DNA from: a virus | Lineage: Duplodnaviria > Caudoviricetes | IMG/VR virus record: IMGVR_UViG_3300020045_004268 | Span: 1-55,768 of that record | Strand: one strand, 5' to 3' | Length of the DNA: 55,768 nucleotides | In this document: piece after piece, positions 1 through 44,324 of the stretch | Layout: the number at the start of each line of letters is the position of its first letter | Position numbering within the stretch: the first letter of the stretch is position 1 | Translations under genes and position numbers: made by a program | Notes under the pieces: generated by a model | Seen by the model: the letters and a program-made list of their open reading frames with translations, nothing else | The model's database searches: none | Told to the model about the DNA's origin: nothing

Positions 1-2032
1 AACCGTTAGCAAGATAGTACTGCTCACAGTTAATCATAAAATTGTCGAACTTTGACCATTCCGAATCATCCCAGTCAGAAAAAAGCATATGCCCAAATTC
101 ATCTAATGGAGTATGTTTAAAATTAAAGTATGAGGACATTTCTACTTCAAATTTACGCCTCTCAAATGATCCTCCAATACCTCCAATAGTGTAGTTAGTA
201 GTTATTAGTATCTTAGGGCTTTTCTCAACCGGAATAGATAAGGCATCCTGCCCTTTATATTCCAGGGTAATACCTTCGGTAATTAAACTGAATAGGTTTT
301 CAAAATTGAAGTTTTTCTTAACGTCGTCAAAAACTAATATTTGAGTATCGGTGCTTACTGTTTGGTACGGGAATGATTTAGTGAACTCAAAGGTTTTACC
401 ATCTATTGAAGACACTTTTTTCATGTTTTTTAAGGCATTCCAAAACAAACCTTTACCACTGCCGCCATTAGGGTTTTCAGATATAGTTTCATCGTTGAAT
501 ATAATAGCCTTGTTGTTAGCCGATGTTTTGAATGAGTGCAAAAGATAGCCTATAACCGATTTAAAGCTGTTATATTTACTTACATCCTGTCCTGAAATAA
601 GCCATAAGAATTTACGGAATACTGCTGTATGGTGGTCTGCCTTAGTAAAATTACGGTCAATAATTTGCCGTTTCCAAACATATCCATCAATATCAATATA
701 GTCGATTTCTTTAATGCCTGTTGCCGTAATCTCAACAACACAATTTTTGTAATACAAAAAGCAAACGTCTTTAGTGTCCTCTTTTATTTGAATATCCGTA
801 GTGCTAAGCATTGAAAGGAAATCAATCTTAAAATGAGAGGTATTAGAGGCCATGAAATCATACGGGGCATATCCAATATTGCTACGCTGCAAAATATCGC
901 TTAAAACGTAGTCTTTTATACGTTTATCGTTAGTTTCCTCTAATAGGTTCTGTTCTTTTTTTATAAAAGTAAAAGTATTACTCGTTGCTGAAGGATAGTA
1001 CTTAAAAAAGTTATTTTGCTCCAGCCAAAACTTGAATTTATGTGTTGATAGTATTATTTTGTTTTTATCATTGTAATACCAAAACTCATCAATATCTAAA
1101 CTTTCTTTTACCCGGCTTATGTCAACACCTTTAAATGCTGCTTCAACTTCTTTTTTACTTTTACCTGCCCTGATTTGTTTTTCTACACGTTCTTTAGTTT
1201 CGTAATCTTCAAAGAACTTATTAGCGGATAGTTTTTTATAAGCTGATTTAACAACGCTTTCAATTTCCTTACGGCTAAAACCATCAGAGGTAAATTTATA
1301 GCACTCATGTTCAGCATCAGTTTTTGATATTCCGAAGTCATTAAATGCCGCCGCTAATTTGTAAAGGTTATTATTACGGCTTCCTTTGTTTGCACCGTAT
1401 TTTTTGCCCCACCAGTCTAAAAGCCTTTGTATAATTTGGTTTGATGAGGTTAACGGTATTACAGGCTCAAAAACGCCTATGTCTTCAAGTTCCGGCGCTT
1501 CTAATTCAGTCCATATTGAACTTTCATAGTTTATATAAATATCGGGGTCATAGCTTTCAAAACAGAATCGGCTTACATCGCTACCGCTTTCATCCCAATT
1601 AGGGTGATTAAAGTGCGCTTCTAATGACTTGAAATAACCTTTGTGATTGTCTGCTATGGCTGGAACTTTAACTAACACCTTAATTCCCTTACCACTTGGG
1701 CTTAACCATGCTGAGAACACATACTCATCGCTGCTGATTGAATCTCTTAGTGAAACTGCATCCTCTGCGGTGGGGAACTTATCAAAATCCAACACAATGT
1801 AACCCGAATGCTCGATAAGCCCAGCTAACGAACGCTGACGAAATTTGCCATTGAAGCAGCACCCAGGCAAGGTAGATTTGTTTTTTGCATAGTCTTCATC
1901 GGACATTATTCGCAATTGCGTAATAAAGTCTTTTGAGGCACCCTCTTTTATTCTTTTTAAAGCGTAGTTAATATCTTTATTATAGGGGCTGTTGGCATCC
2001 TTTACCGATTTGAAAAATGATATAATGCTCAT
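1..2032 (-). CDS. Primase-helicase (BT4734/VirE_N primase domain plus SF3-like helicase), 3'-truncated by window edge
   Basis: Not in ORF track; both ends hand-translated from ATG at 2032: MSIISFFKSVKD...KSTLPGCCFNGKF...SGYIVLDFDK...AWLSPSGKGIKVLV...DVSRFCFESYDP; later GGSGKGLF (Walker A), ILVFDDV (Walker B), ILITTN, ERR. ATGA overlap with upstream ORF. Confidence 0.85.
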   Translation of the reverse strand, partial: MSIISFFKSVKDANSPYNKDINYALKRIKEGASKDFITQLRIMSDEDYAKNKSTLPGCCFNGKFRQRSLAGLIEHSGYIVLDFDKFPTAEDAVSLRDSISSDEYVFSAWLSPSGKGIKVLVKVPAIADNHKGYFKSLEAHFNHPNWDESGSDVSRFCFESYDPDIYINYESSIWTELEAPELEDIGVFEPVIPLTSSNQIIQRLLDWWGKKYGANKGSRNNNLYKLAAAFNDFGISKTDAEHECYKFTSDGFSRKEIESVVKSAYKKLSANKFFEDYETKERVEKQIRAGKSKKEVEAAFKGVDISRVKESLDIDEFWYYNDKNKIILSTHKFKFWLEQNNFFKYYPSATSNTFTFIKKEQNLLEETNDKRIKDYVLSDILQRSNIGYAPYDFMASNTSHFKIDFLSMLSTTDIQIKEDTKDVCFLYYKNCVVEITATGIKEIDYIDIDGYVWKRQIIDRNFTKADHHTAVFRKFLWLISGQDVSKYNSFKSVIGYLLHSFKTSANNKAIIFNDETISENPNGGSGKGLFWNALKNMKKVSSIDGKTFEFTKSFPYQTVSTDTQILVFDDVKKNFNFENLFSLITEGITLEYKGQDALSIPVEKSPKILITTNYTIGGIGGSFERRKFEVEMSSYFNFKHTPLDEFGHMLFSDWDDSEWSKFDNFMINCEQYYLANG

Positions 2033-2415
2033 GATATATTTAGTTCTAAGAACGGGTTCTTTGATTCATGTTTGGGTACTCCGTTTTCATAATAAAAAAC
2101 AACCCCATTGTAAAGTGCAATAAAGTTTTTAGAACGGTTGTTTTTATCAGATTTACTGAAAATCTTTATATTGTCAAATGAGTTGTTAACCCAGCACTCA
2201 TCAATATGCCCAAAAGATATAGTATAGCAGTTACAGCCTTCAAAACCAAATAAGTGTTTACCGATTGTTATGCACAAGTCTTCAGATACTCCTGATATTC
2301 TATAAAACAGCCCAGGGCGCTTAAAACTTAAATCATTAATTTCTTTATTGGTTTCTTTTTCGTAAACCTTGCCATCGGGGTTAATGTAATGGTTTTCAAA
2401 TTCTATTTTATCCAT
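2029..2415 (-). CDS. Hypothetical protein, translationally coupled to primase-helicase
   Basis: 128 aa ORF; N-terminal YINPDGKVY weakly NUMOD4-like. Confidence 0.65.
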   Translation of the reverse strand: MDKIEFENHYINPDGKVYEKETNKEINDLSFKRPGLFYRISGVSEDLCITIGKHLFGFEGCNCYTISFGHIDECWVNNSFDNIKIFSKSDKNNRSKNFIALYNGVVFYYENGVPKHESKNPFLELNIS

Positions 2416-2529
2416 AAAATAAAAAATCGTTTAGGTTTCTGAGGTGGTGGCTCATACTCCCTAAACGATTAAGTTATAATTTTTTCATTCATGCCAAACC
2501 CACCACGGATAACATGTTATGCAAATATA
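2416..2529 (-). ncRNA. Structured 5' leader copy 1 (promoter plus kissing-loop hairpins)
   Basis: TATATTTG at 2529-2522; hairpin 2490-2516 with GUGGUGG; hairpin 2425-2470 loop CCACCAC, GAGUA/GAAA internal loop, U-tract, then ATG. Confidence 0.7.
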
Positions 2530-2806
2530 GTAAATATATTTAATTTAAACATGTGTGTTATATGTTTTATTGAATTTTATAAAAAGCACCTTTTTAATAT
2601 GTTGATTGTTAGTGTATTAAAAAAACACATGTTTTATAACTATCTTATTTTCAGAGTTTTAAAAAAAGTGCGTCGTTGCGGCTAATTTTTGCCGACTTTT
2701 GAAAAAAAGATGAAAAATAGCCTTTTCTCAAAAAACGCGTTTTTCTTTAAGGGTAAACCGACCCCCTGTTTTGACACATACGACGCGCCTATAAAACACG
2801 CTCATA

Positions 2807-2830
2807 AAAAAACCCGCTATCTATAGCAGG
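2807..2830 (-). terminator. Rho-independent terminator
   Basis: CCTGCTAT-AG-ATAGCGGG followed by T7 at end of SF2 helicase. Confidence 0.6.
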
Positions 2831-4460
2831 CTTCTAATTTTGATTTTATTTTATCGTGTAAGTAGTGATAAGTACGTGGCACACCGTTAGTTAACATGTT
2901 TACATATCCGTAATTTTTCTCTAAATACTCCTGTATTCGTTGCTCTAAATAGCCTGTTTTGCATCGTTTTTCGTATATTTCGGATGTGACACGGTTAAGT
3001 TTCCAAAGGTCTACATATCTCTCAATAAGAATATTGTAGTAATCGTTTTTGTTATCAGTTGTACGCTTTACAAACTCGGCAATCTTTTTACCATTAGGTA
3101 TTGGCACAACTGATACAGCCGTAGTTTTAGTTGTTGCCCTTTCAGGTTCGTCTTCAAATAGCTTAGGCTGTACTACGCGTTGCTGTGACTGGTTTTTATA
3201 GCTACAATCAGGGCATTCATCTGAAGCACTCCCTATCCAGTTGTAAGCGCATTTTTCACACTGTATCAGTATTTCCTTTTTCTTTTTTGCAGGAACTAAG
3301 CCGTTATAAAAAATTTTACCCCAGTCAATATTATCCGACCACCCGTAATCTTTAAAGCGTTTTATATTGCCGCCTAAGTCAATAAGTGTGAAGAAGGGTT
3401 TATATATCTTATTACTTACACGTCCCCCACGACCTACTATTTGGTGAAATAATGAAAGCGATTTAGTTGGCCGATTAAGAATAATAGCCTCTACTTCTTT
3501 GTCATCAAATCCAGTTGTAAACGTGCCTGTGCTTACTAATATACCCTCTTGGGTATTCCTATACCATTCAAGTATTTTTGAACGCTCTGACGTGTCATTA
3601 TTCACGCTATCATAGCTTTTAATATCATATCCTTTTTCTGAAAACACATCTACCAAAGAAAGGTTTTGTTTTGTTGAGGCTGTAAAAATCATGGTTTTTT
3701 TCCCTAATAGCTTTTCTTCGTATTCGGCTAACACATCTAAATCATGCTTTGTACTTTCCTCTGCTATTTCATTCTCATCAAAATCATCATTTTCTTTAGC
3801 TTCTAAGTTCTCATAATAGTTATATGAAAAAATAACCTCACCAACTAATGCGCCCTCATCTATAAGGGTTTTAATCGGAACTCCTGGAATAAATCCATCA
3901 TACATTTGCGACATGGTAACCGGTACTGACCATTTTTCAGCCTTTTCATTATAACAGCATTCAATACGTGCATCATGTTTTTTTTCGCAATACTGGCACT
4001 TGTAAATTGTGTTACGCTTATTTATTATAGGCGTGGCCGTGAATGCTACCCGTTTTGCATTACTAAACAGGCTAAAGGTTTTCAAGAATACGCCCTCATG
4101 TGCCTCGTCAATAACATGTAGCCCAATAGGTAATGATAATTTACGGCTCCATATAGTTTGCGTCATACCAACGTAGACACGGGTTACAAAGTTATTTTTT
4201 GATTTAGCTGTAATCTTTTCGTTTAGTATTCCGAAATTAGCTAATGTATCTGAAGTTTGAGACACAAGCTCATCACGGTGTACTGAAATTAAAACCATCT
4301 TATCGGGGTTTAATTCTAACCATCTACGTATGAACTCAGACATTATAACGGTCTTGCCGCTGCCGGTAGCAGATTGACATAATACCGAATCATATAATTG
4401 TAGCTGCTCAAAAATAGAGGTTATCATATCCTCTTGGTAGTAGTACGGGGTTATTTTCAT
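2817..4460 (-). CDS. SF2 DEAH-box helicase (RadD/YejH-like) with Zn-finger motifs
   Basis: ATGSGKT, DEAH, TATP, TTGFD, QIVGRGGR, CxxC pairs. Confidence 0.9.
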   Translation of the reverse strand: MKITPYYYQEDMITSIFEQLQLYDSVLCQSATGSGKTVIMSEFIRRWLELNPDKMVLISVHRDELVSQTSDTLANFGILNEKITAKSKNNFVTRVYVGMTQTIWSRKLSLPIGLHVIDEAHEGVFLKTFSLFSNAKRVAFTATPIINKRNTIYKCQYCEKKHDARIECCYNEKAEKWSVPVTMSQMYDGFIPGVPIKTLIDEGALVGEVIFSYNYYENLEAKENDDFDENEIAEESTKHDLDVLAEYEEKLLGKKTMIFTASTKQNLSLVDVFSEKGYDIKSYDSVNNDTSERSKILEWYRNTQEGILVSTGTFTTGFDDKEVEAIILNRPTKSLSLFHQIVGRGGRVSNKIYKPFFTLIDLGGNIKRFKDYGWSDNIDWGKIFYNGLVPAKKKKEILIQCEKCAYNWIGSASDECPDCSYKNQSQQRVVQPKLFEDEPERATTKTTAVSVVPIPNGKKIAEFVKRTTDNKNDYYNILIERYVDLWKLNRVTSEIYEKRCKTGYLEQRIQEYLEKNYGYVNMLTNGVPRTYHYLHDKIKSKLEACYR

Positions 4461-5629: not shown

Positions 5630-5770
5630 AATGTAATAAAAAAACAAACCCATTAACTCGCCGTGTCTACTCGGCTTATTAATGGGTGTTTTTGGTTAAG
5701 GTTAACCAGTATCGTGATAGAGGTAGACATTCTCTATTGCAAATGTAGTAAAATATTTTGAATGAGCAAA
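5630..5770 (-). ncRNA. Structured 5' leader copy 2 (promoter plus kissing-loop hairpins)
   Basis: TTTG-N19-TACATTTG promoter; hairpin 5717-5737 loop UGUCUAC; hairpin ~5646-5692 loop GUAGACA, UAA/GAG internal loop, U-tract. Confidence 0.7.
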
Positions 5771-18469: not shown

Positions 18470-19249
18470 TTATTGGTTATAAAATTTACCATCGTTTATT
18501 GGGGCTGTATTGGGTTTTTCGGGCAGCTTAACCATAGTTCGAGTATTATTTGCCTCGGTTATCCAATCCCGGATGCTTAACAACCATCCACGCTCTGTAC
18601 GCCGCTTTTGAGGGTTGTTCTCGCTCCACATATCAGCTTTACGGATATAGTGCTTTAAATCCACTCCTTTGAACTTTTCTACAAATTCTTTATCCTTTGC
18701 TAAGTAATCTCTCAATGTTACATAATCTGACCATTTGCATTCAGCGAAAAAAATTGCAGCCGCCGCCTCTTTTTTATTTTTAGAAGAAGTTTTTAAGGTT
18801 TCAGTAGGTAAATCAGTTTCGGAAAAAAGTAAAGGCGTTTCTTCTATTTGGTTTATATTTGGTTTATTATATGGTATAGGTTGGCTATTATCATCTAATG
18901 TATTTGGCATTACTGACTTATCCATTTGCGATAAATAGCTAATCGTGTTTTCACTAACTGTATACCATTTTGTTCTATCGTATGGAGAAGCATTATAATT
19001 TCCAGATAAAATTAATTCGTGCTTTTCAAGTTTTGACAAACAGGTTTTAATTTGGCTTTCAGTAAGCCATGTAAATTGCTCTATAAACGCTTTGATGCTA
19101 TTATAAGTCCAGTATTTGCCATCGTGAAAATTCCTGTTATTGGCCTTATTTGTATCAACCCAAAAATCAATGTTTGAGTAGATAATTGCAGCATCAGTAC
19201 CAACTATTTTAGCCATATCAGGCTCAAATGTCATTTTAACTTTACTCAT
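18470..19249 (-). CDS. Phage replication initiator (winged-helix N-terminus)
   Basis: FEPDMAKIVG..AAII...FW..N......DGKYWTYNS...F.W...QI...L.KL...YDRTKWY; upstream of DnaB-like gene. Confidence 0.75.
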   Translation of the reverse strand: MSKVKMTFEPDMAKIVGTDAAIIYSNIDFWVDTNKANNRNFHDGKYWTYNSIKAFIEQFTWLTESQIKTCLSKLEKHELILSGNYNASPYDRTKWYTVSENTISYLSQMDKSVMPNTLDDNSQPIPYNKPNINQIEETPLLFSETDLPTETLKTSSKNKKEAAAAIFFAECKWSDYVTLRDYLAKDKEFVEKFKGVDLKHYIRKADMWSENNPQKRRTERGWLLSIRDWITEANNTRTMVKLPEKPNTAPINDGKFYNQ

Positions 19250-19766
19250 GGCCAAAGTCTGTTATATGTTGTTCAATAGTATTTAATTGAGTGTCGGTTA
19301 ACTCAAACCATTCGCCATCTACTCTAAACATAGCAAAAACAGAATGCAGATAAGCCTCGCAAAGAATATTATCAACCTTAAACTCTGAAAAAAGAGTTAT
19401 GCTTGGGTTTGATGTTTTCAATGTTTTCATTCTGTCGCTAATCTTGCCTCTTGTCATCCCTATTTTAAATAGGTTTGTTCTTTCGCATTTAGCAACATAA
19501 ATTATTCCCGGTGTTATTTTTTTTTCTTTTTTATTGCAAGGAGGCTCGTAACGATAATCAGCTTCTAAAGATTTGTTTTCTCTATCCATATAAGAAATTA
19601 CATTATCATAATTAGTTATTGAATTTTCTAAACATTCCTTTAAATGAATAAGGTCTTCTTTGGTGGGAATTTCATACCAATTTCCAGTAAAAAGACAAAG
19701 ATGCTCTTTTCCATCATCTGAACTTTTTATTCTTAATTGGAAAAATTTAAACACATTTGTTATCAT
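19242..19766 (-). CDS. T5orf172/Mug113 GIY-YIG domain protein
   Basis: IYV...FKIGMT...R...L.TSNP...E..LH..F...RVDGEWF.L. Confidence 0.85.
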   Translation of the reverse strand: MITNVFKFFQLRIKSSDDGKEHLCLFTGNWYEIPTKEDLIHLKECLENSITNYDNVISYMDRENKSLEADYRYEPPCNKKEKKITPGIIYVAKCERTNLFKIGMTRGKISDRMKTLKTSNPSITLFSEFKVDNILCEAYLHSVFAMFRVDGEWFELTDTQLNTIEQHITDFGHE

Positions 19767-19881
19767 AATAAAAAAAATCCATTTGGTTTCCCCGTGACGG
19801 CAGGTACTCCCAAATGGATTAAAATTAATAAAGTCTTTTGTTGTAATAAAGCCCGTCAGAATTATTACTTCGACAAATATA
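19767..19881 (-). ncRNA. Structured 5' leader copy 3 (promoter plus kissing-loop hairpins)
   Basis: TATATTTG at 19881-19874; hairpin 19843-19868 with UGACGG; hairpin 19776-19820 loop CCGUCA, GAGUA/GAAA internal loop, U-tract, ATG. Confidence 0.7.
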
Positions 19882-39813: not shown

Positions 39814-40416
39814 TTAGTTATTAAAAGTTAATTTGAAACCTTTGTTTGTATTTTCAAGATTTACCATAGTGTCATTACCCATTAAAGGTATGCCATCCCA
39901 CAAGTCCTGAGCTTCATTTACGGCTACGTTTACGGTTATCCTACCAAATTTAAGGTAGGCCGCATCCATACGCCCTGAATTAGGGTCTTGTTGCAGGTTA
40001 TTTACAGATACACGCCCAACTAACGGTGATGTAAAGCCTAATTGTTTGTATTTGGTGCTACAAAGTATATACCTTATAATTCCCAAATACCTGTTTATCT
40101 TCATTTTGCTTGCCTCACTGCCTGTAGAAGCGTTTGTTTCTTCACCCCGGCAATAAACATCTACGTAATATGTAACATTTCCTTGTGTACCTCCCTGTGT
40201 TTGCCCCTGAAAGTCAATTGAATTTAGCGATACATTGATTAAAACGTCCTCGCTTTTGTCGTAAGGGTACATTCTTTCAACGTATACTTCAACCTCATCA
40301 GTAAAAGACTGTATTGTAACCTGATTTGTAATTTCCTCAAACAATATGGCTCCGAGCTTGTTTAATACAATCTCGAAGCCTTGTTGTGGAATTATTTCTG
40401 TTATCACTACCGCCAT
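39814..40416 (-). CDS. Tail terminator/neck protein
   Basis: Position upstream of sheath. Confidence 0.6.
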   Translation of the reverse strand: MAVVITEIIPQQGFEIVLNKLGAILFEEITNQVTIQSFTDEVEVYVERMYPYDKSEDVLINVSLNSIDFQGQTQGGTQGNVTYYVDVYCRGEETNASTGSEASKMKINRYLGIIRYILCSTKYKQLGFTSPLVGRVSVNNLQQDPNSGRMDAAYLKFGRITVNVAVNEAQDLWDGIPLMGNDTMVNLENTNKGFKLTFNN

Positions 40417-40419
40417 TTC

Positions 40420-40803
40420 TTAAGGTTTAAAGTCACCCAAAATAAGGGTTATTAAGCCTAAAGTTTCATCAGGCATATTCTCGGTTACAACATAGTTTTT
40501 AGAAACCCCTGTGCTGTCTGCATAAGCTACAAAGTGCCTTAATAGGTGTACTTCATTCTTAAGATTCCTAACAGGGTAACCAGCCTCAACTAAAATGTTT
40601 TCATCAATGGTAATATGTACCGTTTTTGAGTTAACAGGATTACCGTCAAGGTCAAAACCTAAGTTATGTTTTGAAGCCAAACCAGTAAGCGAAAGTGTGG
40701 TAGACTTATCAGGGGTCATTAAAACAATGCTTTCCTGAAAACCTAAACTTGTAGTGATACGCTTTGCGTCCCTTTTCGCTAATTCTAATATCGCTCCACC
40801 CAT
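40420..40803 (-). CDS. Head closure/head-tail adaptor (gpFII-like)
   Basis: Position; PDETLG.I.LIL. Confidence 0.6.
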   Translation of the reverse strand: MGGAILELAKRDAKRITTSLGFQESIVLMTPDKSTTLSLTGLASKHNLGFDLDGNPVNSKTVHITIDENILVEAGYPVRNLKNEVHLLRHFVAYADSTGVSKNYVVTENMPDETLGLITLILGDFKP

Positions 40804-44176: not shown

Positions 44177-44296
44177 TTATTGTCTGTTTAAGGTTAAAAC
44201 AAAAAAAGCACCTACCGCTTTATGCAGATAGGTGCCTTATTAATATTTTAGGGTGCTGTACATCTTCATACAGGTGTTTTGTTGATAGCAAATATA
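44177..44296 (-). promoter_or_regulatory. Late promoter with attenuator-like leader
   Basis: TATATTTG at 44296-44289; GGCACCTA...TAGGTGCT-T run before protease. Confidence 0.6.
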
Positions 44297-44324
44297 CAAT
44301 TATTTTCTATTGTTCAATACATTA

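Follow-up and report, generated by a model that had tools for sequence, protein, structure and literature searches.

In phage lambda, the constitutive promoter PR' is followed at once by the terminator tR', and a short RNA (6S RNA) is made unless Q releases transcription. The CI RNA of P4 and the c4 RNAs of P1 and P7 (C4 in Rfam) are leader-derived RNAs in which short, complementary, phage-specific words control premature termination or translation. Kissing complexes of the ColE1 RNA I/RNA II and TAR types are built from fully paired loops of 6–7 nt, with the loop-loop helix stacked between two stems, and they join intermolecular antisense partners. To our knowledge, little is known about the timing of gene expression in phages of Bacteroidota. 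For the guanidine-IV riboswitch, a competition between kissing and complete closing of the terminator stem, exerted through a short linker, is proposed in the available portion of PMC11611296. In phage T4, mobE and segF are free-standing homing endonuclease genes whose 5' intrinsic terminators lower the level of the nuclease transcripts, with ~30% termination for mobE according to the available portion of PMC2988022.

The stretch of DNA analysed here (the window) spans an entire virus record from IMG/VR (55,768 bases), which carries nearly all of its long ORFs on the minus strand and whose nearest named relatives are Flavobacterium phages (~66% identity across one gene). Judged from its sequence, the segment 2416–2529 encodes a folded RNA leader of ~100 bases, placed between a predicted promoter and the phage replication operon. 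Similar to guanidine-IV (mepA motif), as far as the available description of that riboswitch goes, the loop of an upstream hairpin kisses the loop of a terminator hairpin, but the leaders show free variation in their loop words and imply no ligand, and the element belongs to a phage and begins where the transcript does, at its 5' end. The arrangement also resembles the lambda PR' unit in that a terminator follows the promoter immediately. Unlike lambda, which has one such unit and no kiss, this genome has three units with a conserved tertiary fold and no recognised release factor. In contrast to P4 CI and c4, the pairing is loop-to-loop within a single unit of ~100 nt, in which no processing signals were seen. 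The loop-loop helix (6–10 nt, mostly 7) is like those of ColE1 and TAR, except that both loops belong to one RNA. Two of the window's leaders, copies 1 and 2, precede an HNH-like ORF and a T5orf172 ORF, respectively, which is reminiscent of T4 mobE and segF; in the available portion of their description, the T4 terminators are plain hairpins inside a coding region, whereas the leader is upstream of the gene and carries a kiss.

The leader sits within an AT-rich gap of 400 nt (2416–2816). Upstream of it is the gene of an SF2 helicase with ResIII and Helicase_C domains (2817–4460), and downstream are a 128-aa ORF (2029–2415, minus strand, ATG at 2415) and the primase gene (2–2032; BT4734-like N-terminal and PriCT_1 domains). 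The stop codon of the ORF overlaps the primase ATG (ATGA), which bears out the coupling of the two genes proposed in an earlier, sequence-only reading of this locus, but the element itself is not specific to the primase operon.

The predicted promoter of the leader is represented by the −7 box TATATTTG (2529–2522, minus strand). It conforms to the Bacteroidota sigma-A element TAnnTTTG, from which its activity is predicted, and its extended form TTTACTATATTTGCA is common to the relatives. In the available portion of PMC6847099, this consensus has a G at −5 and is separated from the start by 4–5 nt, a spacing that puts the predicted transcription start at 2517/2516, in agreement with the start near 2515 expected in the sequence-only reading. 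The bases CAUAA lie between the box and hairpin A (2490–2516, minus strand), which begins at +2 of the predicted start. Hairpin A consists of a 7-bp stem, CAUGUUA/UUGGCAUG, with two G.U pairs, and a 13-nt loop, UCC-GUGGUGG-GUU, that presents the 5' kiss word GUGGUGG (2500–2506), as had been claimed. Alone, it is a weak hairpin (−7.9 kcal/mol, z −1.75; 15/200 shuffles are as good). A mini-ORF of 8 codons with its AUG at +3 was considered as a leader peptide and rejected, as it is not conserved in the relatives.

A G-poor, A/U-rich linker of 19 nt (2471–2489), with AUUAUA at 2480–2475, connects hairpin A to the terminator hairpin B (2425–2470, minus strand). The latter reads AAUCGUUUAGG-GAGUA-UGAG-CCACCAC-CUCA-GAAA-CCUAAACGAUU and is made up of an 11-bp lower stem (2470–2460/2435–2425), an internal loop formed by GAGUA (2459–2455) and GAAA (2439–2436), a 4-bp upper stem (2454–2451/2443–2440) and a 7-nt apical loop, all of which is the 3' kiss word CCACCAC (2444–2450). 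Hairpin B is followed by the U-run UUUUAUUUU (2416–2424), which is broken by one A, and by AUG at 2415–2413, so that the hairpin, the U-rich stretch and the start codon are all where the sequence-only reading had put them. Folded alone, hairpin B has an energy of −16.6 kcal/mol (z −5.91; 0/200 shuffles as good). Its stable stem runs directly into a U tract that, together with two U of the stem end, reads UUUUUUAUUUU, which is the form of an intrinsic terminator; a simple terminator scan nevertheless did not pick it up because the interior of the hairpin is large. Folding of all 131 nt together yields A and B (z −2.5). The kiss GUGGUGG/CCACCAC comprises exactly 7 bp with mismatched flanks (duplex energy −11.1 kcal/mol). 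The word GTGGTGG occurs six times in the window against 3.7 expected and is not rare in itself; it is the arrangement, and not the word, that exceeds chance. The A-rich linker (2479–2493) is also complementary to the U-run plus AUG (2413–2427) at 13 of 15 positions, one G.U counted, and in a read-through mRNA this pairing could make stem B longer and occlude the start codon.

The helicase gene upstream ends in a plain hairpin with a U-run (about 2806–2834, minus strand), which is outside the leader and is a stable terminator in its own right (2795–2860 folds at −18.2 kcal/mol; 0/200 shuffles as good). As the helicase operon has its own plain terminator, hairpin B would serve its own promoter, and the leader would be a self-contained unit.

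The fold of the leader was examined by covariation in two well-registered alignments. The first, A4, contains eight sequences of the window's subtype gathered from IMG/VR by a pattern scan. In A4, 90.8% of the cells are paired and 17 of 30 pairs are changed on both sides, a value reached in 0/500 shuffles, while slid controls are 36–53% paired. Hairpin A and both stems of B are found unaided by RNAalifold. The six shared pairs of the kiss are paired in 8/8 sequences and include two double changes (UGGUGG to UGACGG together with CCACCA to CCGUCA). Relative to the other A4 sequences, hairpin A of copy 1 is shifted by one base, and the covariance model inserts one base to realign it. The second alignment, A7, is made up of seven sequences of another subtype, including window positions 5739–5640; it is 95% paired, its kiss is paired in 7/7 sequences and 3/7 kiss pairs are changed on both sides. 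The matches of the covariance model at E<=1 all lie on the gene strand (22/22), which, along with the G.U pairs, indicates that the sense RNA is the one that folds. At E<=2, 3/29 matches are reverse strands of true hairpins. An attempt at one family-wide alignment from the model of the window's subtype, R1 (A5, A6), was abandoned, as hairpin A and the apical loop were too ragged for the pseudoknot to be counted. Because of this raggedness and of the reverse-strand matches, pair counts are restricted to A4 and A7, and scripts were used for the whole set.

The bulged-G consensus of the sarcin-ricin loop and of eukaryal loop E is AGUA opposite GAA. The GAGUA/GAAA internal loop of hairpin B has AGUA opposite GAA between Watson–Crick helices and in the same polarity, a likeness known here from the letters of the module. 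The sequences GGGAGUA and GAAACC are invariant in 8/8 A4 sequences, and the module, highlighted as a loop-E signature in the sequence-only reading, is indeed a conserved element between covarying helices. It is found in both copies of this subtype in the window (19872–19767 and 2520–2416), in 13/15 viral pattern-scan loci on which the model was run (the contig of L019 also yielded a sixteenth pattern-scan stretch, L089), and also in L019, the L050–L071 group, L064 and phage FCV-3, and it is flipped in L041, L043 and L074. Unlike the sarcin-ricin motif, it is exchangeable for tandem-GA loops in sister leaders: other leaders carry tandem GA of the UGAU/UGAU type, GGAA/AGAA, a U-rich loop or no internal loop at all. 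The AGUA/GAA element is thus a conserved module of the subtype and not a requirement of the family. A conserved AGUA/GAA hairpin is also present inside the primase coding region of L053, L055–L059 and L071 (about 4179–4217; 41%-identity group).

In the window, the R1 model recognises 19872–19767 (99.1 bits) and 2520–2416 (83.3 bits), with the next match at 16.7 bits, so the name copy 1, which implied a second copy, is apt. Copy 2 (19767–19881, minus strand) has the kiss UGACGG/CCGUCA and the same GAGUA/GAAA internal loop, and it precedes a T5orf172/MUG113 ORF (19242–19766) and the replication initiator. A third leader of the other subtype (5640–5747, minus strand, box at 5747) has the kiss UGUCUAC/GUAGACA and an extra middle hairpin, and it precedes the genes of PIF1-like and SF2 helicases. 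The ORF list places the start of the PIF1-like helicase at ATG 5653, within the terminator stem of this leader; ATG 5629, located 18 nt past the stem, is the more likely start. The three kisses are orthogonal: the cognate duplexes have energies of −11.1, −7.8 and −7.7 kcal/mol, and no cross duplex is better than −2.6 kcal/mol. A blastn search of the window found no sequence copies of the leader. Taken with the model matches, this makes the copies structural and not sequence repeats. At 44197–44304 (minus strand), a structural-module gene is preceded by a −7 box that fits the consensus, by a small hairpin and by a strong terminator, but the loops there are not complementary.

A search with the primase brought 80 related loci with 33–98% identity. 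The leader sequence is hardly conserved among them, and only L019 matches it (83% over 66 nt). The plan is nonetheless the same, and the same gap of relatives holds other words (CUUCCAC/GUGGAAG, UGUCUAC/GUAGACA, CAUCUAC/GUAGAUG and CUCUCUGA/UCAGAGAG). Leaders of the window phage and its relatives were selected blind to the kiss: each had to have a −7 box and a strong terminator whose interior measured 12–55 nt, to lie outside long ORFs and to be followed by an ATG-initiated ORF within 45 nt. This gave 66 candidates, of which 30 remained without near-duplicates. A match of at least 7 nt between a leader's own loops is present in 23/30, as opposed to 39/870 (4.5%) mismatched pairs; for matches of at least 6 nt, the counts are 27/30 and 113/870. 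The three leaders with no match are L008:9650, window 44296 and window 26424. Among the raw candidates (n=250), 61 have a kiss and 13.75 are expected to. The loop-loop pairing is not due to chance, and the contact postulated in the sequence-only reading is backed by compensatory changes in the relatives.

For description, 43 unique leaders were curated, after visual inspection had removed 34 rows that were coding, of low complexity or parsed in duplicate. They carry 29 distinct pairs of kiss words with a length of 6–10 nt (most commonly 7), all end in a U-run (43/43), G is nearly absent from the last nine positions of their linkers, and few of their unpaired positions are conserved. The genes downstream encode primase, helicases, DNA methylase, HNH/NUMOD4 nucleases and small ORFs of unknown function, and in relatives the leader directly precedes the primase.

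By their sequences, these leaders appear to constitute an uncatalogued family of phage RNAs, widespread and with a function that we infer. Copy 1 has its hallmarks, namely a position near the predicted +1, a kiss kept through two-sided changes, and a U-run with an ATG close behind it. An exact 24-nt word had 0 matches in IMG/VR. In representative cellular genomes the subtype pattern had 16 matches, 0 of which were recognised by the covariance model. No description of such a leader was found in a search of article texts. A family member with the kiss GUAGUGC/GCACUAC and the AGUA/GAA module is present in Flavobacterium phage FCV-3 (L115 10357–10460; KY951963.1 about 40356–40459), and 65 records of cultured Flavobacterium columnare phages carry the stretch with an identity of at least 99%, which makes the mechanism testable at the bench. 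A covarying fold between promoter and first gene in several operons per genome would amount to a new class of cis-regulatory RNA and would give the kissing-loop riboswitch platforms a natural relative that works without a ligand. To this the window adds the bulged-G (loop-E type) subtype, three orthogonal copies in one genome and the link to cultured F. columnare phages; the word pairs could serve as orthogonal parts for engineered control of termination.

The leader is, with moderate probability, a promoter-proximal attenuator or gate of the replication operon, whose terminator is either braced or opposed by the kiss. Host RNA polymerase would start at about 2517, and hairpin A would form at the extreme 5' end of the RNA. 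After some 60 nt more, hairpin B would emerge with its upper part, whose 7-nt loop would pair with loop A into a 7-bp kissing helix, with the GAGUA/GAAA module (bulged-G/loop-E type) acting as a structured spacer in the arm. The 11-bp lower stem and the U-run would then terminate transcription intrinsically, 9 nt before the ATG, and the unit would set the amount of transcription that enters the 128-aa ORF and the primase operon. Bracing of the terminator arm is one possible effect of the kiss; the other, as in guanidine-IV, is that it opposes closure of the lower stem. Opposition is conceivable because the 19-nt linker barely spans the stacked helices: the coaxial stack of A, kiss and B amounts to 34 bp (~95 Å) here, with a reach-to-length ratio of 1.2. 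Across the leaders, linkers of 15–22 nt face stacks of 26–35 bp, the ratio is about 1.0–1.4 in many, and the two lengths do not correlate (rho −0.16, p 0.37), which favours neither bracing nor opposition. As the kiss is in the loop and not in the stem, it might just exist side by side with the terminator, and the leader showed no alternative pairing that would act as an antiterminator. Essential replication genes behind a strong terminator require some means of release, and a PHROGs scan of 30 ORFs recognised no antiterminator-like protein; this counts against the attenuator, as do the A within the U-run and the weakness and register shift of hairpin A. A broader interpretation, doubtful but worth stating, is that such leaders serve Bacteroidota phages as a general timing switch without a ligand, with each early or replication operon behind its own terminator and the copy-specific kiss as a code for read-through or termination. 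This code may be read by a phage or host factor or by accumulated short leader RNA, and the loop-E or GA module would set the stiffness of the arm and, hence, how much the kiss resists the closing of the terminator.

Start codons in the host phylum reportedly have an A-rich context, whereas the bases in front of the copy 1 ATG are U-rich. This speaks against a reading that we regard as unlikely, in which stabilising the 5' end and offering a platform for translation are the element's main roles: the fold would hide the 5' end from end-dependent RNases, the U-rich single strand would be left for Shine–Dalgarno-independent loading of ribosomes, and termination would be weak or incidental. Bacteroidota do initiate without Shine–Dalgarno pairing and in a manner sensitive to mRNA structure (as stated in the available portion of PMC6847099), which suits such a role, as does the start codon that is always close downstream. 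In 39/43 leaders, pairing begins between −2 and +4 of the predicted start, and in L007, L009, L015 and L020 the kiss is made by the RNA's own first bases. A local hairpin alone would shield the 5' end, though, and the kiss and the canonical stem with U-run in 43/43 leaders are left unexplained. An equally improbable alternative makes the terminated RNA of ~100 nt the product, either a compact trans-acting small RNA in an immunity akin to P4 CI and P1/P7 c4 or a decoy, with the loop words as an identity code. The numerous short RNAs that a strong promoter with an immediate terminator would yield, the orthogonal word pairs of the three window copies and the variety of pairs among relatives would all fit. 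Both loops are, however, occupied in cis, and the element is always 8–40 nt before a start codon, as expected for a cis leader. Kiss positions evolve only slightly faster than other stems (15.8% vs 12.4% changed in 36 related, non-independent pairs), which is not convincing, and the relatives look lytic (Ficleduovirus-like), so immunity would be less useful to them.

Rfam gave 0 matches at the gathering score and seven weak ones at E<=5, none of them at a leader. The missing match to C4 or any other family bears on the small RNA just described and equally on a small-molecule riboswitch, in which the kiss would form a ligand pocket as in guanidine-IV. The architecture, with an upstream hairpin loop that kisses the loop of a terminator hairpin, is that of the mepA motif, but the leaders, with their variable words, are not recognised by the curated guanidine-IV model and lack its conserved loop nucleotides. 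With 29 freely varying word pairs, an internal loop that is either missing or takes any of at least three interchangeable forms, few conserved unpaired positions and functionally unrelated genes downstream (primase, helicases, methylase, HNH nucleases), a ligand is very improbable. Least credible of all is chance complementarity beside an ordinary terminator with no tertiary contact. The frequency of GTGGTGG in the window and the weakness of hairpin A alone would allow it, but the pairing recurs with other letters in nearly all comparable leaders and is unbroken in two aligned subtypes.

The 128-aa ORF behind copy 1 is 30% identical to a 133-aa ORF that occupies the same slot in L018. It belongs to no Pfam and no PHROG family, has no usable match in Protein Atlas and, as bait in IMG/VR, retrieved one weak locus. 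Its stretch H-x-D...NN...DN is suggestive of HNH_3 nucleases, and a degenerate homing endonuclease is a possible identity of the ORF. In the relatives compared (L005, L008, L018 and L029), the number of variable small ORFs between leader and primase ranges from 0 to 4. The record stops inside the primase gene (1–2032): ~105 C-terminal residues present in relatives are absent, also from the other end of the record, which is therefore not quite complete. No tRNA or tmRNA was found in a search for these genes. Upstream of the promoter is a 13-nt inverted repeat (2547–2559/2622–2634, 92% complementary) with the core ACACATGT. Boxes resembling GCGTGTCACAT occur in both orientations in the same gap of relatives, and the repeat and these boxes may be operator or iteron sites.

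Two variants of the plan were seen among the relatives. In L061 (3725), L062 (3590) and L065 (1329), the 5' word UUCUCUG is complementary to CAGAGAA only beyond a GC-rich terminator, outside the terminator loop. L019 has a tandem arrangement at 2868–3043, in which a promoter, a first hairpin and a U-run are followed by a near copy of the window leader that has no box of its own.
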